This document shows, piece after piece, positions 10,804-29,689 of a DNA stretch of 64,000 nucleotides. Every line of letters begins with the position of its first letter. The stretch's first letter is position 1. The stretch covers positions 53,385 to 117,384 of the forward strand of contig CAYWTB010000004.1 in NCBI GenBank assembly GCA_964461135.1, given 5' to 3'. The position numbers and the translations under genes were made by a program. The notes under the pieces are model-generated. The model saw nothing but the letters and a program-made list of their open reading frames with translations, was not told the DNA's origin and did not search any database. This stretch comes from an uncultured Caldithrix sp. (GTDB lineage Bacteria > Calditrichota > Calditrichia > RBG-13-44-9).

Positions 10804-12012
10804 TCAGGGAAGTATCAGGCGCACCCAGTCCACCTTGCGGCGGGTTGCACGTGTTATTACAAATTTAACGCCGTTATATTCAAAGCTCTCGTCCCGCTTG
10901 GGAATATGTCCGAGATAGTTTAGAATGAAACCGGCCAGGGTGTCATATTCTCCTTCCGGAATTGAGATTCCGGTCTCTTCATTCAGTTGCTCAAGCTCGA
11001 TCCGGGCACTTACACTGAAAATCCGATCCTCAATTTTACGGACGTGGATTTCAGTGGCATCATATTCATCAATTATTTCCCCCACCAACTCTTCAATGAT
11101 ATCTTCCGTGGTTACCAGTCCGGCTGTACCTCCATACTCATCAATTATGATGGCAATTGAGGTATTTTTCTGCCGGAAATTACGCATCAGTGACAGGCTT
11201 CGCTTGGTTTCGGGCACGAAAAGTACCTCCCGAATGATGTCCTGAATGGAATTGGGTTGAAGGAAAAGGTCTTTCAGAAATACCACCCCTATAATATCAT
11301 CCAGATTGTCCCGATACACCGGAATTTTGGTAAATCCCGATTTCTGAAATATCGTCGCCAATTTTTCGATGGAAGCATCCTGCTCAACAGCAATGATTTC
11401 AGTTCGGGGTATCATGGCATCTCTGACATGTAGCTGCCGTAAATCAAGCAACCGGGTTATAATCAGATTTTCCCGTTCATCCAGACTGACATAGTTCTGG
11501 CTTTCCTTAATGAGAACTTCCACATCTCTTTTGGAAAAAAAATCGGTGATTTCAGTGGATGGATAATTAAACAGTTTCAGGATTAGTCCGCTCAGGAAAC
11601 TAACAATCCAGATAATGGGCCGAAACAGATAATAGAAAAATTTCAAAAGGTAAGCCACTTTACGGATAATCCAGTCTGCCAGGCTGCGAAACAGGGTCTT
11701 TGGAATAATTTCACCAAACAGGATGGTAATGCCGGTGATAAGCAGCCAGGTAAGTTTTTCATCCATGTAACGGTGGAGATAGAGAGTTGCATAAGAAGCG
11801 AATGCTACATTAGCCAGGTTATTCCCAACCAGAGTAGTATAAATGAAATTTTCCGGTTTTCTGAGGAATTCAGCAATAATTTCAGCTGTTCTGTTTTTCT
11901 GCCGGCGCCACAGCTCAATGCGGACACGGTTTACGGAAATAAAGGCGGTTTCCGTACCGGAAAAATAAAACGTCATCAGCAGTGTCACCAAAATGATAAT
12001 CAGTTCATACAA
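10804..12012 (-). CDS. Hemolysin-family CorC/HlyC/TlyC protein: CNNM (DUF21) transmembrane domain, a CBS pair and a CorC_HlyC domain.
   Basis: 402 aa. The N-terminal TM region contains GTETAFISVNR. The C-terminal EYGGTAGLVTTEDIIEELVGEI region is typical of the family. Confidence 0.85.
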   Translation of the reverse strand: MYELIIILVTLLMTFYFSGTETAFISVNRVRIELWRRQKNRTAEIIAEFLRKPENFIYTTLVGNNLANVAFASYATLYLHRYMDEKLTWLLITGITILFGEIIPKTLFRSLADWIIRKVAYLLKFFYYLFRPIIWIVSFLSGLILKLFNYPSTEITDFFSKRDVEVLIKESQNYVSLDERENLIITRLLDLRQLHVRDAMIPRTEIIAVEQDASIEKLATIFQKSGFTKIPVYRDNLDDIIGVVFLKDLFLQPNSIQDIIREVLFVPETKRSLSLMRNFRQKNTSIAIIIDEYGGTAGLVTTEDIIEELVGEIIDEYDATEIHVRKIEDRIFSVSARIELEQLNEETGISIPEGEYDTLAGFILNYLGHIPKRDESFEYNGVKFVITRATRRKVDWVRLILP

Positions 12013-18387: not shown

Positions 18388-18837
18388 TTATTTATTGCCG
18401 GGATTTCCTTTGTGTTTCCGGTAAAGCTTTCTCAACCCGATGGCGGATTCCTTCCCGTCACAGATTCCATCTCCATCCGTATCAATGAATCTGTCCCGGG
18501 GAGGATTTTTCCCTTTGCGATAACCCTTTCCCCCCTGTTCCAGATGGTCATCAATACCATTGCCATTAGCATCGACAAAGCCTTCCAAGGGCTGTTCAGT
18601 TCCAGCCGGCTCTACCCCCTGCTGCTGGCCTTCCGGATTCTGCTGATCTTTCTGAACCTGTTCCCTTTCCTGTGCCTGTTTCTGCTTTTGTTCGCCGGTC
18701 TTTTTTTGTTGTTGCTCGGTCGACTTTGTCTTTACCTGCTCTTTTTTCTTTTCCGTTTTTGTGGAATCCGCATTCTGTCCCACAACACCTGATATTCCAA
18801 TGAACAGGCTCAGAATGATAATATAATAGTTTTTCAT
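18388..18837 (-). CDS. Secreted Q/K/E-rich low-complexity protein with two DxDxDG calcium-binding-like loops (paralog 1 of 3).
   Basis: Signal peptide MKNYYIIILSLFIGISGVVGQ, followed by KTEKKKEQVKTKSTEQQQKKTGEQKQKQAQEREQVQKDQQ. Loops are FVDANGNGIDDHLE and FIDTDGDGICDGKE. A 4-nt gap separates it from the upstream gene. Confidence 0.6.
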   Translation of the reverse strand: MKNYYIIILSLFIGISGVVGQNADSTKTEKKKEQVKTKSTEQQQKKTGEQKQKQAQEREQVQKDQQNPEGQQQGVEPAGTEQPLEGFVDANGNGIDDHLEQGGKGYRKGKNPPRDRFIDTDGDGICDGKESAIGLRKLYRKHKGNPGNK

Positions 18838-20920: not shown

Positions 20921-20950
20921 CAGCGCTCTTCCTTTATGGGAAGAGCGCTT
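20921..20950 (-). terminator. Intra-operon hairpin or attenuator between paralog 2 and the beta-barrel gene.
   Basis: AGCGCTCTTCC tttat GGGAAGAGCGCT: an 11-bp perfect stem. On the minus-strand RNA it is followed by CAUAUUAUUCG, which is only moderately U-rich. Confidence 0.35.
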
Positions 20951-20967: not shown

Positions 20968-21504
20968 TCATCTACGTGGACCTCTGTTTGTTTTTCCTTT
21001 TGGTCCGGTTCCGTCACAATTTCCTGAAGCCGCTCCGGTTCCATACCCCATTCCGTTCTGAGGGCAGACACCCCGGTTACCGGTGCCATCACCGGGACCA
21101 TAACCACCCCTGCGGGTTTTATGTATGGCAGAGGCTTTTCCTTGGCCCTGATTCATATTATCGGCTATACCATCACCGTCTGTATCCACAAACTGCTGCT
21201 GGCGTTTACCCTTACCGGCTCCCTGGTAATCGGGATCCTGGCCGTTGGGAATACCATCCTTGTCATGATCCGGCGCGTTATCATTAAAACCATCGCCGTT
21301 CTTATCAACAAAGTTCGGTCCGTGGATTACCCGGTTCTGCTCAGTGTTTTGAGTAGTTCCCTGGTTCTGATTCTGATCCTTCAGCTGGAGTTCCTGATTT
21401 GTTTTTTCTTTCTGCTTGCTGGAATTGTCCTGGGCCCTGCTGATCCCTGCGGTCAGAGACAGGGACAGAAATACAACGAAAACGAACAGATATAACCTTT
21501 TCAT
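20968..21504 (-). CDS. Secreted Q/N-rich low-complexity protein with DxDxDG loops and a Gly-rich GYGPGDGTGN tail (paralog 2 of 3).
   Basis: Signal peptide MKRLYLFVFVVFLSLSLTAGISRAQ. Loops are FVDKNGDGFNDNAPDHDKDGIPNGQDPD and FVDTDGDGIADN. The tail is RGGYGPGDGTGNRGV...GYGTGAASGNCDGTGPKG. Confidence 0.6.
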   Translation of the reverse strand: MKRLYLFVFVVFLSLSLTAGISRAQDNSSKQKEKTNQELQLKDQNQNQGTTQNTEQNRVIHGPNFVDKNGDGFNDNAPDHDKDGIPNGQDPDYQGAGKGKRQQQFVDTDGDGIADNMNQGQGKASAIHKTRRGGYGPGDGTGNRGVCPQNGMGYGTGAASGNCDGTGPKGKTNRGPRR

Positions 21505-21562
21505 TTTTTATTCTCCTTATTATGTTTTGTTATCAGGTTTTCGTTCATTTGTTATATTTCTT

Positions 21563-21579
21563 TACAAACCTCGTGCCAG
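21563..21579 (-). promoter_or_regulatory. Candidate sigma-54 (-24/-12) promoter for paralog 2.
   Basis: The minus strand reads cc TGGCACG aggt TTGTA aa (GG at -24; TTGT rather than TTGC at -12). The -12 element lies about 62 nt upstream of the start codon at 21504, adjacent to a sigma-54 activator gene. Confidence 0.45.
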
Positions 21580-22117
21580 GATTAGTAATAATTTTTAAGT
21601 TTATAATAATAATAGACTTGTAAATTTTATTAACCTGACGTCGGAGACTTGTCTTCGCCCGGTTGGTCGTATAAATCGACCTGCCAGTCGATACCCAAGT
21701 GTTCGGGTCAATTTTCTGATAAATTCCGCCTGAAAATAGGATTCTTCGCATTAATACGTGACTGCTAAACTTACCTGATCTCCTGAGAAAACATGTCAGC
21801 GCTGCCTGCTGTCAGGCAGGTACGCGGTGGTTTTGGCATTTCGACTCTTAACGATCCTTTACACCTCCCACCCTAAGTGGTTGGGTTAGTAATGAATTAA
21901 AGAAAACCTTGCTCAATTACTAATCCCGGCAGGGATGAAATGTTTAAAGAAAAGATAGAATCGAAAGACATGAACTCTGCAGGAGTGATATATGAAATCC
22001 TTTCAGAATATTTTGTTTGGGTATTCATTATTATGAAGTACCGAAAATATGAAACTAACAGATAACTATACTTACATGATATAACACTGTTTCGCTATAA
22101 TTCAGTACTGGAATTAC

Positions 22118-23482
22118 CTACTTTAATCCCAGTTTTTCCAGCCGTGAGCGGAGGTGTCTCTCCGTTATTCCCAACAGGCGCGCCGCTGCACTTTGATTTC
22201 CCCGTGTCTGTTCCAGGGCTGAACCAATCATCTCCTTTTCAAAGGCCCGCACTTTGTCTTCATAACCATCCCCATAATTATAGGGATCCAGTACCTTTTT
22301 TTCGGTTGGCGGCTGAGTATGGCCCGGCAGGTCCGTCATGGAAATGATATTGGTGCGACTAAGAACCACTGCCCGTTCCAGAATATTTTCCAGTTCCCGG
22401 ACATTTCCGGGAAAATCATATTTCATCAGACGGTCCAGGGCCTCACCCGATATGCCCTTCATTTCCTTCTGATTTTCGCTGCTGTATTTGTTTATAAAAT
22501 GTTCGGCCAGAACCGGAATATCCGTTTTTCGCTGGCGAAGAGGCGGCACAAAAATAGTGACCACATTCAGACGGTAATACAGATCATCCCTGAATTCACC
22601 CAGGTGCATCTTATCTTCCAGCTGGCGATGGGTGGCGGCAATAATGCGGACGTCCACTTTGATAGGGGCCGAGCTTCCAACCCGTTCTATTTCACCAAAT
22701 TGTATGGCCCGCAACAGTTTTATTTGGATAGGAAGAGGAATATCACCTACTTCATCGATGAAAAGGGTACCGCCATTCGCCTGCTCAAAACGCCCGATCC
22801 GCTGTTGTGAAGCACCGGTGAAAGCCCCTTTTTCGTGCCCGAAAAGTTCCGATTCAATTAAATTCTCCGATAACGCCGCTATATTTACAACCACAAACGG
22901 TTTGTCCTTACGAGGACTGGAGTAATGAATAGCCCTGGCAATCAGCTCTTTTCCGGTACCGCTTTCTCCGCGGATAAGCACCGAAGCTTTACTGTTGGCC
23001 ACCCTGCCGGCAGTATTAAGGACATTCTCCATCTCCCCGCTTTGAGAAATGATAGACTCAAACTTAAATTTCGCTTCCAGTTGCTCGCGGAGTTGCTTGT
23101 TTTCTTCCATCAACAGCCGTTTTTCTTTGACCCTCTCAATCAGGTTTTCCAGTTCATTCAGATCTATTGGTTTGCTGAGATAATCATATGCGCCTGCTTT
23201 CATTAATTCCACTGCATCTTCAATACTCCCGTACGCGGTTATCACTACCACATCGATTTCAGGATTTAATTCCTTTATTTTGCGTAAAACCACCAGTCCG
23301 TTCCAACCCGGCATGCGGTAATCAGTAAGTACCAGATCTATAAAATGTTTCCGGGCTATCTTAAACCCCTCTTCACCATTAACTGCAGTATATACCTGAT
23401 AATCCCGGCGTTCCAGGTAGCTTTTCAGGGCTTTCAGCTGCGTTTCCTCGTCATCGATTAATAGCAAGGTAAAAGGTCTCAT
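22118..23482 (-). CDS. Sigma-54-dependent response regulator (NtrC/ZraR/AtoC family): REC, AAA+ sigma-54 interaction domain and Fis-type HTH.
   Basis: The receiver region is MRPFTLLLIDDEE...DLVLTDYRMPGWNG. GESGTGKELIARAIHYSS is the Walker A, and the GAFTGA motif is present as EKGAFTGA. The C-terminal HTH is QSAAARLLGITERHLRSRLEKLGL. Confidence 0.9.
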   Translation of the reverse strand: MRPFTLLLIDDEETQLKALKSYLERRDYQVYTAVNGEEGFKIARKHFIDLVLTDYRMPGWNGLVVLRKIKELNPEIDVVVITAYGSIEDAVELMKAGAYDYLSKPIDLNELENLIERVKEKRLLMEENKQLREQLEAKFKFESIISQSGEMENVLNTAGRVANSKASVLIRGESGTGKELIARAIHYSSPRKDKPFVVVNIAALSENLIESELFGHEKGAFTGASQQRIGRFEQANGGTLFIDEVGDIPLPIQIKLLRAIQFGEIERVGSSAPIKVDVRIIAATHRQLEDKMHLGEFRDDLYYRLNVVTIFVPPLRQRKTDIPVLAEHFINKYSSENQKEMKGISGEALDRLMKYDFPGNVRELENILERAVVLSRTNIISMTDLPGHTQPPTEKKVLDPYNYGDGYEDKVRAFEKEMIGSALEQTRGNQSAAARLLGITERHLRSRLEKLGLK

Positions 23483-23581: not shown

Positions 23582-25624
23582 TTAATTTCTGATTCCGTTT
23601 AAGATTTTCCCGGGTATTTGTATGGAAAATTGTGTTCCCTGTCCTTCCCTGCTTTCCAGGAAAATAGTGCCATTGTGTTGATCAACAATTTGCTGAACAA
23701 TACTTAACCCGATGCCGGTTCCGCTATCTTTGGTGGTGAAATAAATATTGAATATTTTTTTCTGTATATCTTCCGGGATTCCCGGACCATCATCAGCCAC
23801 ATTCATTTCAATGAAGTCCCTTTTTGTTTTTCTGATGTGGATATCGATGCGTCCACCGGAATTCAAGGCCTCCATGGCATTCTGAATCAGGTTTGTGAAA
23901 ACCTGTTTCATTTTGCGGCGGTCCCATTCCACCGTTTCCGACCACTCCGAATCTATGTGAAGACTGATATTCTTTGTTTCCAGTAATGGCTGATATTGTT
24001 TTTGCAATTCGTCGAAAAAATCCTGCAGCGAAAAAACCTCTGTTTGCAACGGCTCAGGCCGGGCAAATCTCAGGAAATTTTCTATGGTTTGGTTAATCCG
24101 TTTCACTTCATTATAGACCATGCGGGAAAGTTGATGATATTCGTCCTGTTGCCGGCGAGGTTCAAAATCCCTGTCCAGTTGCTGGATGACGGTTCCGATG
24201 GCATTGAGGGGGTTACGTATCTCATGAGCCACACCGGATGCCAGCTGGCCCAGTGCTGTTAACCGTTCCCGTCTCTGAATCTGCCCTTCCAGCCGTTTCT
24301 GATCGGTCAGATCCCGTGCCACCAGAATATATACCAGCTGATTATTCTCATCCGTATAATGACTCTTTGACATTAAAATATGCCTGGTTTTTCCTTTAAT
24401 TGTCATCGGAAACTCCTGCATGCTGAAGCGATCATCCAGGATATGTAGCCAGTTCATGCCAGGGAAAACGCTCCTGATTTCCTTTCCCACCACTTCATCA
24501 GCTTTTAGTTCGAATAATTTTTCGGCGGATTGATTGACGATTCTGATTTTCTCTCCCGATTCGAAGACAATAATCGCATCACTCACGTTTTGGATAATAT
24601 TGCGGGAATAGGTTTCCACAGACTGGTACTGTTTCCGGGTAAAATCGAGATTTTGCCTCATCATTATGAAAGTGAACATGAAAAAACCGATTACCAGCAG
24701 CAGAAGGCTGATGATTGTGATGCGGCGATATATACGGCTGTTGATCACAGTAAGAGGTGCCATTGAAATACCCAGCCTGAATATGCCGACCGGCTCTCCC
24801 TGATAGTTGAAAGAATGAACGGCTTCAAAAACTTCCTGCCCTTTAAAATCAAGGGTACGAACACGTAAAACGGAGTCAGATAAAGCTTTACTGAGAAACG
24901 GTGAAGTATTAATCCGTTCCAGGTCCACTATATTTCCGGAGGCGGCGAGAATGCCGGAGGTATCCTGAATGGCTGCATACAGGATTCCGGGATTCCCGCT
25001 AAGGCTTTGAAGAAGGCTGCCAATCCCCACCTCCTTGCGAAATTCCAGCAGCTGCGCCGCATTCAGGTTAACGACTATGGCACTTTGGGCTTTTCCGGCC
25101 ACCGCCACTGCATAGCGGAAGCCCTTTTCATAGCGTGCCGCCTTTAATCCCAGCAACAAAGTATCCGTCTTTCCGGTGAATATGGGTGTTAAAATGTCTT
25201 CCGGTTCATTCCCGGATTCGGAATAATTGTGTATCTGCTGATGACTGCTGTATATCTTTTTTCCATCGGGTGTAAAAATATTTATCCTGTACAGATTATT
25301 TTCGCGGGCAAACTTCTGCAGGAAGGCATTACTGACCCGACCTTTGTTATAGAGATCTTTTACCATATTGGCATTATTTAAAAGTCTTTCATCAATAAGC
25401 TCTTCAATCAACATATTTGTCATCAGCGTATTGCGGGAGGCACTGATGACTGTTTCCGATAAAGTATGTGCCTGTTCAGTCATGAGTTCAACCAGCTCTT
25501 TCTTGCTCTGGCGTAATTCTATAATAGCCGAACTGATCATCAGGGCTGCCAGTACCAGGAATATGAATAACAAATTTTTAGGACGTATGAACTGTGCCTG
25601 TCTGAAGATTCTTTTCATGATCAT
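23582..25624 (-). CDS. Membrane sensor histidine kinase: two TM helices flanking a ~270-aa periplasmic domain, then PAS, HisKA and HATPase_c.
   Basis: TM1 is LLFIFLVLAALMISSAII and TM2 is ITIISLLLLVIGFFMFTFIMM. The H-box is GVAHEIRNPLNAI, and the ATPase region contains DDGPGIPEDI...GTGIGLSIV. Confidence 0.85.
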   Translation of the reverse strand: MIMKRIFRQAQFIRPKNLLFIFLVLAALMISSAIIELRQSKKELVELMTEQAHTLSETVISASRNTLMTNMLIEELIDERLLNNANMVKDLYNKGRVSNAFLQKFARENNLYRINIFTPDGKKIYSSHQQIHNYSESGNEPEDILTPIFTGKTDTLLLGLKAARYEKGFRYAVAVAGKAQSAIVVNLNAAQLLEFRKEVGIGSLLQSLSGNPGILYAAIQDTSGILAASGNIVDLERINTSPFLSKALSDSVLRVRTLDFKGQEVFEAVHSFNYQGEPVGIFRLGISMAPLTVINSRIYRRITIISLLLLVIGFFMFTFIMMRQNLDFTRKQYQSVETYSRNIIQNVSDAIIVFESGEKIRIVNQSAEKLFELKADEVVGKEIRSVFPGMNWLHILDDRFSMQEFPMTIKGKTRHILMSKSHYTDENNQLVYILVARDLTDQKRLEGQIQRRERLTALGQLASGVAHEIRNPLNAIGTVIQQLDRDFEPRRQQDEYHQLSRMVYNEVKRINQTIENFLRFARPEPLQTEVFSLQDFFDELQKQYQPLLETKNISLHIDSEWSETVEWDRRKMKQVFTNLIQNAMEALNSGGRIDIHIRKTKRDFIEMNVADDGPGIPEDIQKKIFNIYFTTKDSGTGIGLSIVQQIVDQHNGTIFLESREGQGTQFSIQIPGKILNGIRN

Positions 25625-25736
25625 AAATTACATTATCCATTTATGCAGGGCAAGATTTCAATAAAGTCTGAAGTGATTTCATACCTGTATCGAACAGTCG
25701 TCTTAACTTCAATACTAAAATTGAATTATTAAATGG

Positions 25737-25768
25737 TAAAAAGCCTCCGTAACGACAGGAGGCTTTTA
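25737..25768 (-). terminator. Rho-independent terminator after paralog 3.
   Basis: Plus strand reads aaAGCCTCCgtaacgacaGGAGGCTtttacc. On the minus-strand RNA the stem GCCUCC/GGAGGC is followed by UUUUUACCAUUU. Confidence 0.5.
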
Positions 25769-25796: not shown

Positions 25797-26426
25797 TTAT
25801 TTCCCGCCGGTGGATCCGCCATTGCGATTCTGGGTTTTGGAACCGCCTGAAGGGGTACCACTACCCAGACCATAACCGGTACCATCCTTCGGTCCTACAC
25901 CCTGGTTACCGGTGCCGTCACCGGGTCCGTATCCGCCTTTTCTGGTACCCTGGGTGGAACCCGGACCATAGCCGGTTTCATCCTTGGGACCAACGCCCTG
26001 GTTGCCGGTGCCATCTCCGGGACCATAGTGCCCGGCTGCATTATCATTGCCCTTCAGCGAACGGAGTTGAAAGCGGTCATCTATTCCGTCGCCATTCATA
26101 TCCCGGAACTGGAAACGGTATTCAAAACGATTCTGGAACATGTTCTGACTCATGGAGGCTGCCCCGGACTGGTTTTTTATCCGGATCTGGTTGCTGGTGC
26201 TTGATTGCAGCTTGTTCTGATATTGGGTCTGATTCTGCTGCTGCACTTTCGGCTGGTCCTGTGCCTGATTTTTTGTCTGATTCTGGACCTGGTTGTGAAG
26301 CTGTGCTTTGGTTTGGGTCTTCGCCTGGGTCTTGGTTCTTGTTTTCAGTGAGTCCTGTGCAAATGCCTGCAGACTGAAAGCAAGGGTTAATCCCAGGATC
26401 AGAGTGAATTGAGAGATGCGTTTCAT
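25797..26426 (-). CDS. Secreted Q/N/T/K-rich low-complexity protein with a DxDxDG loop and tandem GYGPGDGTGNQGVGPKD repeats (paralog 3 of 3).
   Basis: The likely true start is MKRISQFTLILGLTLAFSLQAFAQ at 26426, preceded by aaGGAGGaagtatc ATG. The loop is FRDMNGDGIDDRF. The repeat tail is HYGPGDGTGNQGVGPKDETGYGPGS...GGYGPGDGTGNQGVGPKDGTGYGLGSG. Confidence 0.6.
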   Translation of the reverse strand: MKRISQFTLILGLTLAFSLQAFAQDSLKTRTKTQAKTQTKAQLHNQVQNQTKNQAQDQPKVQQQNQTQYQNKLQSSTSNQIRIKNQSGAASMSQNMFQNRFEYRFQFRDMNGDGIDDRFQLRSLKGNDNAAGHYGPGDGTGNQGVGPKDETGYGPGSTQGTRKGGYGPGDGTGNQGVGPKDGTGYGLGSGTPSGGSKTQNRNGGSTGGK

Positions 26427-26475
26427 GATACTTCCTCCTTGGTTAAGGTTTTTGTTGTAACACAACCAATATTGC

Positions 26476-26492
26476 CTCAATTGTCGTGCCAA
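26476..26492 (-). promoter_or_regulatory. Candidate sigma-54 (-24/-12) promoter for paralog 3.
   Basis: The minus strand reads t TGGCACG acaa TTGAG gcaa. The -12 element lies about 52 nt upstream of the start at 26426. It has the same TGGCACG-N4-TTG architecture as the site upstream of paralog 2. Confidence 0.4.
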
Positions 26493-26695
26493 TGGAGAAC
26501 CAGACCTTGCTTATATGATGTTTATATTAGACTTATAACGATGATGTGCAGAGATGAAGGTACTTACTGCTCGACCGGACGGGCGAATTACGCCAACCGG
26601 ATGGGCGGATATTTCGTGGAAGCAGCGTGACGGATAAATTTAAAAATGAGTGCCGGCATCCAGCAACAAAAGATTTCCCTGGCAGAGATGTAATT

Positions 26696-27598
26696 TTAGT
26701 GAGAATCGGGTGGCGAGGTCTTCCAGCGGCGGTGCATCCAGAAATATTGTTGGGGATGTTTACGGATGGCCCTCTCCAGCAGTCTCATCAGGTCAGCCGT
26801 CAGAATTTGCAGATTATCCCTGGAGAAAACCTGCCCCGAGCGATCCTTAACCGGTATCATATCAACGTCGAACTGGTATATGCCTACTCGCGTGGACAAT
26901 CCCAGAAACAGGGGTGCAGCGGTTTTCATGTGAAGAATAGCCGCGCCGGTATGAGTTGATGACGGGCGATTAAAGAATGAAACGAATATCCCACGATCTC
27001 CGGCATCCTGATCTCCCAATAGTGCTATCATTCTGCCGGCCCTTAACGCTTTTTCACAATTCTGAACCGCCCCGCGAGGATAGATAATCTGCAGACCCCA
27101 ATTTTCACGCCATTCTTTCATTCTTTTGTTGACCAGGACATTTTTTTGCCGCTGCTGGATAACTGCCGATCGAATACCCCGGACATAAAAATAATTAACG
27201 GCAACCTCCCAGTTTCCATAATGTCCGGAAACAACAATCGCCCCACGATCGTTTTTAACCGGCCGGACGACATTTTCGATTCTGGCCCGGTATACACGTT
27301 CTTCCAGATGCCGTTTACTCCATTTTTGCATTTTCATGAATTCCAGAATCACCAGGGAAAAATGGAGATAAGAAGAATAGGCGGTTCTCTTCCGCCATTT
27401 TGACGGTTTTTCCGGAAAAGCCAACCCTAAATTATCCAGGGCAACCTTGCGGCGGATTCGTAAAACATGGAATGCCAAAAAAGCAAACAGACGGGCTGCA
27501 GCAGGCAATGTGCTGTCCGGAAGAGAACCCACCAGTTTTTCTACCAGATGAAATCCCTGGAATTCCGCCCGATGCTGAAAAGAAATGCTGCTGGCCAT
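26696..27598 (-). CDS. Lysophospholipid acyltransferase, LpxL/HtrB-like (lipid A biosynthesis late acyltransferase family).
   Basis: 300 aa. The C-terminal KHPQQYFWMHRRWK signature is typical of LpxL/HtrB family members. Confidence 0.75.
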   Translation of the reverse strand: MASSISFQHRAEFQGFHLVEKLVGSLPDSTLPAAARLFAFLAFHVLRIRRKVALDNLGLAFPEKPSKWRKRTAYSSYLHFSLVILEFMKMQKWSKRHLEERVYRARIENVVRPVKNDRGAIVVSGHYGNWEVAVNYFYVRGIRSAVIQQRQKNVLVNKRMKEWRENWGLQIIYPRGAVQNCEKALRAGRMIALLGDQDAGDRGIFVSFFNRPSSTHTGAAILHMKTAAPLFLGLSTRVGIYQFDVDMIPVKDRSGQVFSRDNLQILTADLMRLLERAIRKHPQQYFWMHRRWKTSPPDSH

Positions 27599-27600
27599 TG

Positions 27601-29106
27601 CTATCCCTTAATTACGCCCAGAGGCTTCAGGCGTGCCACTTTACAGCTGATGCCGGCTTTATGCATAACCTCCACTACATCTGCCACATCTTTATAAGCC
27701 TGTGGCATTTCTCCCGCAATGGTTTTCATACCTTTTGCCCGTATTATAACGCCACGCCTTTTAAGTTCCTGGACAAGATTTCGTCCCTTTCCGGCTTTTA
27801 AAGCCTGGGTACGACTCTGGACGCGTCCCGCTCCATGACAGGTGCTGCCAAAGGTATCCTTCATGGCCTGATTGGTCCCCACAGCCACGAACGAATATCG
27901 TCCCATGTCTCCCGGCACCAGCACCGGTTGACCCACTTCCCGGTATTTTTGAGGTATTTCTGAATTCTGCGGGGGAAATGCGCGGGTGGCTCCCTTGCGG
28001 TGCACACACACTTTTTTTCTACTGCCATCTATATCATGCTCTTCAATCTTGGCCACATTATGGCAGACATCATAGACCAGCCGGAAACCGAAGTCATCAG
28101 AGGACATATTAAACATTTTTAACATGGTTCTACGGGTGATCGCCATAATAATCTGCCGGTTGTTCCAGGCAAAATTGGCCGCCGCCGCCATGGCACCCAG
28201 GTAATCCCTGCCTTCCGGTGACTGAACAGGCGCACAGGCCAGTTGCCTGTCGGGAAGCATTATCCCGTATCTGGGAATGGCTTTTACCAGGATCTTCAGA
28301 TAATCATCGCAAACCTGGTACCCCAGGCCACGTGATCCGGTATGAATAGAAATGGTAAGCTGCCCCGGGAATAATCCAAAAATTCCGGCAATTTCCTCAT
28401 CATACACTTCATCCACCATCTGCACCTCCAGGAAATGATTCCCTGAACCGAGTGTACCGGCCTGATCCTGTCCCCGCTCAATGGCACGGGAGCTGACTGC
28501 CTCCGGATCAGCCTGTTTCAAACAGCCGTTTTCTTCAGTAAACAGCAGATCCTCTTCCTCCCCGAAATCATTTTCCACAGCCCAGCCCGCTCCCTTCAGA
28601 AGAATTTGTTTAATCTCCCCGGGAGATAATTTCCGGATGGCTCCGGATGATCCAACGCCGGTGGGGATATTATGGAAAAGGGTTTCGACCAGCTTTTGCA
28701 TTTGGGGTTCCACCTGCCGGGCATGCAGATTTGTACGGATCAGCCTGACGCCGCAATTAATATCATATCCCACACCTCCGGGTGAGACCACTCCATTCTG
28801 TACATCGGTGGCAGCCACACCGCCGATCGGGAAACCATATCCCCAGTGTATGTCGGGCATGGCAAGGCTGTATTTCTGAATTCCGGGAAGATGAGCCACA
28901 TTAACTACCTGTTTAATGCTTTCATCATTTTGCAGGTATTTCTCTATCATTTTGCGGGAACTGTAAATGCGGCCGGGAACCCTCATTCCTCCCTGTGCCG
29001 GAATTTCCCATAAATAGTCATGGATGGGATGCAATTCATAACCGCTCACATGCATTATCGTTTCCCCTGTATATTTGAACAACTTCCCTTTGCTGTTAAT
29101 TGACAA
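27601..29106 (-). CDS. rtcB: RNA-splicing ligase RtcB (3'-phosphate/5'-OH RNA ligase).
   Basis: Full-length with RtcB hallmark segments, including ...HTGSRGLGYQV and GSTCHGAGR (metal and GTP ligands). Confidence 0.9.
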   Translation of the reverse strand: MSINSKGKLFKYTGETIMHVSGYELHPIHDYLWEIPAQGGMRVPGRIYSSRKMIEKYLQNDESIKQVVNVAHLPGIQKYSLAMPDIHWGYGFPIGGVAATDVQNGVVSPGGVGYDINCGVRLIRTNLHARQVEPQMQKLVETLFHNIPTGVGSSGAIRKLSPGEIKQILLKGAGWAVENDFGEEEDLLFTEENGCLKQADPEAVSSRAIERGQDQAGTLGSGNHFLEVQMVDEVYDEEIAGIFGLFPGQLTISIHTGSRGLGYQVCDDYLKILVKAIPRYGIMLPDRQLACAPVQSPEGRDYLGAMAAAANFAWNNRQIIMAITRRTMLKMFNMSSDDFGFRLVYDVCHNVAKIEEHDIDGSRKKVCVHRKGATRAFPPQNSEIPQKYREVGQPVLVPGDMGRYSFVAVGTNQAMKDTFGSTCHGAGRVQSRTQALKAGKGRNLVQELKRRGVIIRAKGMKTIAGEMPQAYKDVADVVEVMHKAGISCKVARLKPLGVIKG

Positions 29107-29257
29107 ATTTCATCCTGAAGACCCCGAGACATTAAGAATTTTAAGGTTCTGAACAGGAAAGTGTCATTTTCACTCGTTTCTCAAATTACATTTCTTAAAA
29201 ACTATTATTATTTTGAACCTTCTGTCCGGCGTCTTCCTGGTTGTGAAGTATCCACTC

Positions 29258-29689
29258 CTATATGTCAAAAACCAACAGGGTCCGGTATACGCCGTTTTCT
29301 TTTTCAATATTCAACTGATGGAAAGTTACCGCTTTTATTTCAATTTCGATCGAATGTCTCTGTGGGTCCAGTAGTTCACCTGCAATCTCTGCATTAAGTT
29401 TCCAAATCTCTTCTGATTTTTCCACCTTCAGATATTCAAATGTGTAAAATACCCATCTTTTTACCGTTAGCAAATAATTCAGTTCATCGATACAGTTCAC
29501 CAGAAGTTCTTCCAGGGATGATGTCTCAAAAGTGAGCTGTTTTTTTTCAACGGGAGCACCTTGCGAATTTTCCAACACCACCTCCCGCCAGGCTGCCGCC
29601 GCAGTCCGGATCAGATCTTCATAATTGTCCCCCTCCAGTCGTACGGCGACATCCGCGGTATGGTCAATCTGTTTATATGTTCCCATCAC
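29258..29689 (-). CDS. Archease (RtcB activator).
   Basis: 143 aa. The N-terminal YKQIDHTADVAVRLEGDNYEDL matches the archease family and it lies adjacent to rtcB. Confidence 0.85.
   Translation of the reverse strand: MMGTYKQIDHTADVAVRLEGDNYEDLIRTAAAAWREVVLENSQGAPVEKKQLTFETSSLEELLVNCIDELNYLLTVKRWVFYTFEYLKVEKSEEIWKLNAEIAGELLDPQRHSIEIEIKAVTFHQLNIEKENGVYRTLLVFDI

Follow-up and report, generated by a model that had tools for sequence, protein, structure and literature searches.

A conserved, probable sigma-54-type promoter element with a non-consensus -12 base upstream of a small secreted glycine-rich protein gene in an uncultured Caldithrix

The predicted promoter element, its target gene and their neighbours

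The window, by which we mean the whole stretch of 64,000 nucleotides analysed here, carries on its minus strand, in this order, a lipid A acyltransferase-like gene, a hairpin, a predicted sigma-54-dependent promoter, a gene for a protein of 209 aa, a second hairpin, the genes of a sensor kinase and of a sigma-54 activator, and a sister promoter. The 209-aa protein is one of three paralogous secreted proteins of an unannotated family. The features of this region are as follows:

26696..27598, minus strand: lipid A acyltransferase-like gene (Pfam Lip_A_acyltrans)
26651..26665, minus strand: terminator-like hairpin and T-run after the acyltransferase-like gene, TGCTGGATGCCGGCA then CTCATTTTTA (from sequence and fold)
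26476..26491, minus strand: predicted sigma-54 core promoter TGGCACGACAATTGAG (read directly; enriched in the window and conserved across loci)
26463..26467, minus strand: predicted transcription start, near 26465 by standard -24/-12 numbering
26434..26438, minus strand: ribosome-binding site GGAGG, with a spacer of 7 nt to ATG 26426
25797..26426, minus strand: target gene, "paralog 3" of the original prediction, 209 aa, of an uncharacterised secreted family
25738..25767, minus strand: intrinsic terminator after the target gene, AAAGCCTCC, loop, GGAGGCTTT, TTTTT (-19.0 kcal/mol)
25632..25661, minus strand: sigma-70-like promoter match TTGAAA-18-GATAAT just before the kinase gene (10 of 12 consensus positions)
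23582..25624, minus strand: sensor histidine kinase, 680 aa, with PAS, HisKA and HATPase_c (Pfam)
22118..23482, minus strand: NtrC-family response regulator and sigma-54 activator, 454 aa (Pfam and GAFTGA)
21563..21578, minus strand: predicted sister promoter TGGCACGAGGTTTGTA (motif match and conservation in orthologues)
20968..21504 and 18388..18837, minus strand: the other two paralogous secreted proteins

Positions 26492..26474 read tTGGCACGacaaTTGAGgc on the minus strand (in a fuller reading, ccatTGGCACGACAATTGAGgcaat). TGGCA begins with the T at 26491, TTG occupies 26480..26478 and is followed by an A at 26477. In the standard numbering the GG at 26490/26489 falls at -25/-24 and the G at 26478 at -13, and the GG, which lies within TGGCAC, is separated by exactly 10 nt from the -13/-12 doublet, as expected of a sigma-54 promoter. 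The G of the GC doublet (TTGCW) is present, whereas -12 is an A against the consensus C. This reading agrees with the original prediction, which had described a perfect TGGCACG and spacing with a non-canonical GA at -12. The element lies on the correct strand, with 50 nt between the end of the motif and ATG 26426; the start had been named correctly together with its GGAGG, found at 26438..26434, and the distance, put at about 52 nt, is slightly shorter. The predicted 5' UTR of the 209-aa gene would be about 39 nt long.

ATG 26426 is the real start, because it opens a signal peptide (MKRISQFTLILGLTLAFSLQAFA) and because orthologues share a beginning with MKR; a longer, TTG-initiated ORF from 26492 was accordingly rejected as an artefact. 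The protein continues with a Q/K/N-rich stretch, an FRDMNGDGIDD motif and two YGPGDGTGNQGVGPKDxTGYGxG repeats. Across the family this layout appears as a signal peptide, a Q/K/N-rich stretch, FxDxxGDGIxDN and YGPGDGTGNxGVGPKDGTGYGxG, the glycine-rich motif often being followed by CDGTGPKG and a basic tail. Neither the three small paralogues nor the 402-aa protein encoded behind the sister promoter matched a Pfam or NCBIfam family, and none of 109 relatives of the 209-aa protein, which come from assemblies of Calditrichaeota, Ignavibacteria, Bacteroidetes and Thermoanaerobaculia, bears a functional name or a Pfam domain. The glycine-rich part may be loosely reminiscent of DUF5320 and of the ZraP tail. 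For the 402-aa protein a single-sequence AlphaFold model was of low confidence (mean pLDDT 34.8) and was not used.

On the upstream side, the hairpin and T-run that follow the acyltransferase-like gene would insulate the promoter region against upstream transcription; the 57-nt segment 26640..26696, which includes a second small hairpin, folds at -9.6 kcal/mol as a whole. Downstream, a hairpin and T-run equivalent to the intrinsic terminator stands directly 3' of the orthologous gene in three of the related loci introduced below (L020, L023 and L026). Given this conserved terminator, the mRNA of the 209-aa gene is most likely short and monocistronic, and transcription would continue into the kinase and activator genes to a partial extent at most. 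These two genes probably have their own expression from the TTGAAA-18-GATAAT sequence, which is a candidate by consensus match only, such sigma-70-like matches being no commoner in the region than in shuffles. A search with Rfam models at gathering thresholds returned nothing in the window. Just upstream of this gene run lie genes for RtcB and archease (27601..29689, minus strand), with no RtcR activator seen nearby and no -24/-12 motif seen before them in the window; in E. coli, rtcBA is sigma-54-dependent.

In the kinase, hydrophobic segments at about residues 16-38 and 298-324 flank a periplasmic domain of about 260 aa, which is followed by the PAS, HisKA and HATPase_c domains. The activator consists of Response_reg, Sigma54_activat (1.2e-71), AAA_lid and HTH_8 domains with an intact loop (HEKGAFTGAS), which bears out the earlier statement that the site adjoins a sigma-54 activator and supplies the promoter with a presumed cognate enhancer-binding protein; it is the only Sigma54_activat/GAFTGA protein in the window. 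Since a search with the RpoN-box peptide found no rpoN in the window or in any of the fetched loci, we infer the presence of sigma-54 in this genome from its activator.

Recurrence in the window and in orthologous loci

TGGCACG-N4-TTG (TGGCACGNNNNTTG) occurs three times on the two strands of the 64-kb window against 0.08 expected, a count reached in none of 100 dinucleotide-preserving shuffles of the window, so that the repeated occurrence is indeed unlikely to be due to chance, as had been proposed. The minus strand carries all three sites (21578..21565, 26491..26478 and 62725..62712), in which TTG is followed by T, A and T, respectively, and never by C. A relaxed scan of the window for GG-N10-G left a clear gap in score between these three and all other matches, which were mostly intragenic.

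The site at 21578 is the sister promoter, the first site of the original prediction, and is followed in order by the genes for the 178-aa paralogue, the 402-aa protein, a DUF4405 membrane protein and the 149-aa paralogue. The 5' UTR behind it (21505..21562, minus strand) contains an unusually conserved sequence, AAGAAATATAACAAATGAACGAAAAC, shared by the window, L020 (11813..11870) and in part L022 (11656..11710), which could be a leader element or could reflect mere close relatedness. Between the 178-aa paralogue and the 402-aa gene there is a strong hairpin (20922..20949, minus strand) of 11 pairs, 7 of them G-C, in a 68-nt segment that folds at -26.7 kcal/mol and has no clean T-run; it may be an attenuator or an mRNA-stability element inside the second operon. 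The stretch from the activator stop to the activator sites of the sister promoter (21700..22117, 418 nt) is apparently non-coding, has no Rfam match and does not recur in the rest of the window or in the fetched loci, and in the closest relative, L020, only about 165 nt separate the activator stop from the promoter core itself.

The third site, TGGCACGTGATTTGTC (62710..62725, minus strand), is a perfect TGGCACG-N4-TTG before a small YXWGXW-repeat lipoprotein-like gene (62360..62671, minus strand). The signal peptide of this gene (MIKRIIMFLLTVLPV) is broken by an in-frame TGA just before SVTMEVGCAP, which could be a nonsense mutation, a sequencing error or a case of read-through.

A protein search with the kinase yielded more than 1600 relatives in metagenomes; all 120 among the matches listed are nearly full-length, covering 92-99% of the query, and are 49-80% identical to it; a few of the relatives listed are labelled Calditrichia and several were named HydH by JGI annotators. 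Scans of genome and metagenome contig collections with the same kinase drew in only distant relatives of the catalytic domain (24-37% identity). From the relatives we assembled a sample of 12 loci (L020-L031) from nine genomes besides the window, comprising about 270 kb. The gene order of these loci is largely conserved: a small secreted protein, the kinase, the activator, a small secreted protein and a protein of about 400 aa, at times followed by DUF4405 and then by another small protein. In nine of the ten genomes that have an orthologous kinase locus, TGGCA[CT]-N5-TTG-N precedes the gene of the small secreted protein or that of the ~400-aa protein; it is read on the coding strand throughout, its distance to the ATG is 45-100 nt, and the sole off-target match in the ~270 kb is intragenic (in L029). 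Every locus with an upstream small gene (L020, L022, L023 and L026) keeps the element in position, strand and spacing; equivalent promoter sites are present in L027, L029, L030 and L031. A check of the remaining genes in these loci turned up no further or canonical promoter upstream of any of them.

In all, 18 sites were gathered, 17 of them regulon sites from about ten genomes and one the site at 62725. The spacing from GG to G is identical in all 18, and the sequence flanking the core is randomised between loci, so that the core stands out as a phylogenetic footprint. As the set was picked by a regular expression, it is in part by construction that TGGCA and TTG do not vary, and the independent evidence is therefore that of position, strand and the linked palindrome described below. 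The original prediction of a sigma-54 promoter had been made to depend on the fate of the element in orthologous loci, and there it is conserved. In two distant orthologous loci, L030 (10504..17853) and L029 (1..7689), the regulon has CzcCBA/CusB-type RND efflux genes as neighbours, together with genes for a DUF2202 protein and an OEP outer-membrane factor, and this setting hints at metal or envelope stress. In L030 promoter and palindrome are present without an adjacent activator gene.

Counts of k-mers in the 300 nt upstream of the 18 sites brought out the GC-rich words CGGTCGA and TTCGCCCG, which belong to a 16-bp palindrome, TCGNCCG-NN-CGGNCGA. At the two main promoters of the window the following copies were delineated, none of which is assigned a strand:

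26571..26586: proximal putative upstream activator site, 16-bp palindrome TCGCCCGTCCGGTCGA in the minus-strand reading (0 mismatches to TCGNCCGNNCGGNCGA)
26593..26608: distal, weaker activator-site-like element CCGCCCATCCGGTTGG (4 mismatches to TCGNCCGNNCGGNCGA)
21655..21670 and 21676..21691: two palindrome copies 21 bp apart at the sister promoter (from a palindrome scan)

The proximal palindrome precedes the T of TGGCA by 79 nt, with its centre near -113 from the predicted start, and would be a perfect upstream activator site within the expected range of about 80-150 bp from the promoter. The distal element starts 22 bp further upstream, which is about two helical turns, and is centred near -135; the same position is filled in L020 (GCGCCCGTCTGGTTGT) and L022 (CCGCCCATCCGGTCCC), and it may well be a second binding site. 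A second, weaker copy 21-22 bp further upstream is frequent across the regulon promoters, and such tandem sites on one face of the helix are the architecture expected of an NtrC-type activator.

With up to 2 mismatches the palindrome has 8 matches in the window against 1.13 expected, and all matches with 0-1 mismatch in the examined sequence precede regulon promoters, with none elsewhere. Its distance from the motif is 76-79 nt in L020, L022, L023, L026, L029, L030 and L031, though with 3 mismatches at the P_up promoter of L026 and the P_dn promoter of L023; the exceptions are the second promoter of L031 (74 nt) and L027 (69 and 83 nt). Among the orthologues, the gap depends on the location of the promoter, being 78-79 nt upstream of the kinase and 76-77 nt at the downstream promoter. 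Two regulon promoters are without a good palindrome, that of L031 at 10300 having only matches with 3-4 mismatches, and none was found upstream of the third site of the window at 62725. In L025 a run of N (about 11588..11601) covers the expected position of the palindrome, making this locus uninformative for the activator site. From the co-occurrence of palindrome, promoter and activator gene we infer that the adjacent activator binds TCGNCCG-NN-CGGNCGA.

Taken as a genuine, conserved, activator-dependent sigma-54 promoter, a reading to which we assign a probability of about 85%, the element at 26491 accounts for these observations. That the match arose by chance, or marks the binding site of some protein with no role for sigma-54, is suggested by the non-canonical -12; against this stand the enrichment over shuffles, the retention of position, strand and spacing across about ten genomes, the palindrome linked at a fixed distance and the sigma-54 activator next door, and we consider such an origin very improbable. 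Two other candidates, a Bacteroidetes-type sigma-A promoter (TTTG / TAnnTTTG) and an NFI-like TTGGC palindrome, were rejected since the conserved columns fit neither.

The base at -12

The base after TTG is A in 9 of the 18 sites, T in 8, G in one and C in none, and the next base is A in 12. It had been suggested that the -24 and -12 elements of the orthologous promoters be compared for co-variation; none was seen, nor is any needed, the C at -12 simply never being present. About 96% of compiled sigma-54 promoters have a C at this position, as given in PMC4551910 (citing Barrios 1999). Promoters with other bases there are nevertheless on record, and the seed table of PMC12316311 includes pspA (TTGGCACGCAAATTGTA) and pspG (TTGGCATGATTCTTGTA) of E. 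coli, both with TTGTA, zraP of Desulfomicrobium (Dbac_1014, TGGCACGGCACTTGATA, with TTGATA) and several further Desulfomicrobium sites with TTGT or TTGA; table S10 of that paper flags the -12 of pspG as off consensus. A C at -12 is hence typical of sigma-54 promoters and not strictly defining, as the accepted pspA and pspG promoters also do without it, and the A found here is a known minority variant of the pspA/pspG type that is real and conserved. The -12 had been described as atypical in the original prediction: unusual it is, yet documented already in pspA, pspG and the Desulfomicrobium zraP. Our literature searches with strings such as TGGCAC-N5-TTGA and TGGCAC-N5-TTGT returned no match, and the main text of Francke 2011 and that of the 2025 regulon paper carry no lineage-specific -12 variants.

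What the uniform lack of C reflects can be approached in several ways. At the unconstrained positions of these promoters C makes up about 12% of the bases, so that its absence from 18 sites under neutral drift has a P of about 0.1. Selection for C is thus absent at -12 in this regulon, whereas selection against it is not demonstrated, and a claim to that effect was rejected. A non-C base could still have been actively selected, if it weakened the repressive fork-junction lock and thereby gave leakier basal expression or a faster response to envelope stress. In keeping with this, C is missing from all 17 regulon sites of about ten genomes although the position toggles between A, T and G, and TTGTA is also the form at the envelope-stress promoters pspA and pspG. 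The consensus C is reported to restrain basal transcription, and promoters with bypass transcription have a non-consensus -12 (PMC4551910, citing Wang, Guo and Gralla 1999). Since neutral composition would produce the same pattern at the P given above and the sites, being orthologous, are not fully independent, we treat such selection as a tentative reading, less probable than its absence.

The missing C might alternatively be a property of the lineage, through an altered -12 specificity of sigma-54 in Calditrichia-like bacteria or a second RpoN paralogue for TTG[A/T]; the recognition helix of the RpoN HTH is marked by the HESTISR motif, with the equivalent of Arg383. All 18 sites are non-C, including the palindrome-less site at 62725 (TTGT), which probably belongs to another regulon, TGGYAY-N5-TWGCW has no match in the window or in L020-L031, and control loci from other phyla show the canonical TTGCA. 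On the other hand, 62725 is the one non-regulon site that speaks for a lineage-wide change, and E. coli and Desulfomicrobium mix non-C and canonical sites under an ordinary sigma-54. Moreover, the window contains a candidate canonical promoter, TGGCAATATTTTTGCT (7685..7700, plus strand), 84 nt before a pilin-like operon (7769..9136, then 9133..9495), which suggests that the sigma-54 of this lineage still uses GC. In a relative (L032, whose downstream protein is 50% identical) the counterpart TGGCAATATATTTGCG at about 1836, together with a palindrome at 1579..1596, is kept amid diverged sequence. A perfect palindrome, TGCAAAAATTTTTGCA (7434..7449), is likewise present in the window about 235-240 nt upstream of the candidate. 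From these two sequences only, we lean toward the non-C base being a feature of the regulon rather than of the lineage, and judge a lineage-wide change to be unlikely.

Less probable still, and mentioned as a speculation, is that the sigma-54 promoters which uniformly lack the -12 C, in a regulon widespread among Calditrichia-like and allied FCB-group bacteria, form a distinct, selected subclass, and that this regulon controls secreted glycine-rich proteins of a new kind that serve in envelope stress or bind metal. If true, the subclass could owe its origin to an RpoN specific for TTG[A/T]A, either altered or a second one, or to a deliberate weakening of the fork-junction lock, and its regulon would be one with more than 1600 kinase relatives.

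Relationship to known systems and proposed regulation

The system would work like ZraPSR or Psp, with a dedicated activator acting on the sigma-54 promoter of a small extracytoplasmic protein, while being a member of neither family. The closest core promoters are those of pspA and pspG in E. coli, which are nearly identical to the core at 26476..26491 and to its sister, the non-consensus -12 included. The psp promoters are enhancer-dependent, as those of the window would be, and the resemblance to psp is confined to the core promoter sequence. In E. coli the psp products act at the cell envelope, and PspF, which lacks a receiver domain, is under the control of PspA and not of a kinase. The activator of the window, by contrast, possesses a receiver domain and scores 306 bits against the PspF cut-off of 444, its putative upstream site is another palindrome, set at a constant distance of about 79 nt, and its predicted target is a secreted protein that does not belong to the PspA family and is unrelated to the psp products.

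In the ZraP/ZraS-ZraR (HydH/HydG) system of Enterobacteria a kinase and an NtrC-family activator are likewise encoded beside a sigma-54-driven gene for a small periplasmic protein, and the parallel extends to the HydH label of kinase orthologues by JGI and to the CzcCBA-type metal efflux genes beside some of the orthologous loci. However, the E. coli zraP and zraS promoters have a canonical -12 (ATGCA and CTGCT) where those of the window are non-C, and the genes of the window are co-directional, not divergent. Activator and kinase both fall below the equivalog cut-offs for ZraR, ZraS, AtoC, AtoS and NtrC, with 445 bits for the activator against 760 for ZraR and 191 for the kinase against 479 for ZraS. 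The 209-aa product matches neither the ZraP/Spy/CpxP type nor any other Pfam or NCBIfam family, its conserved motifs being GDGIxDN and GDGTGNxGVGPKDGTGYG. Dbac_1014, annotated as 'zraP' of Desulfomicrobium baculatum in RegPrecise, has the same TTGA at -12 before the gene of an annotated small periplasmic stress protein, a likeness of promoter sequence to a computational entry from an unrelated phylum.

The layout of the upstream sites is that of NtrC at glnAp2, where a phosphorylated receiver-AAA+-HTH activator occupies tandem dimer sites two helical turns apart at about 100-140 bp upstream of a -24/-12 promoter, and the closest solved structures to the activator of the window are of the NtrC family (4l4u and 1ny5). 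Nonetheless, the sites of the window have another sequence (TCGNCCG-NN-CGGNCGA), the 454 bits of the activator fall short of the NtrC cut-off of 559, and no link to nitrogen assimilation is seen in the regulon of the window.

In the regulation that we propose, a closed complex of sigma-54 RNA polymerase would form on TGGCACG-N4-TTG (26491..26478), and the kinase, sensing a periplasmic signal, would phosphorylate the adjacent NtrC-family response regulator. The phosphorylated activator would then bind the palindrome at 26571..26586, and probably also the weaker site 22 bp further upstream, oligomerise, loop across the spacer of about 80 bp and open the promoter with ATP. Transcription from near 26465 would give a short, probably monocistronic mRNA for the small secreted glycine-rich protein, ending at 25738..25767, and the sister promoter at 21578 would be under the control of this activator as well. 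Such a circuit would resemble that of ZraPSR or Psp, in which an envelope signal turns on an abundant small extracytoplasmic protein.

The finding of this promoter leaves the known picture of sigma-54 transcription unchanged. It does provide a phylogenetically deep example of sigma-54 promoters without the -12 C, which bears on how the -12 element sets basal repression. A widespread, uncharacterised two-component system further gains a predicted operator, promoter and regulon, whose predicted targets are small secreted glycine-rich proteins, a protein of about 400 aa belonging to no family and a DUF4405 membrane protein.
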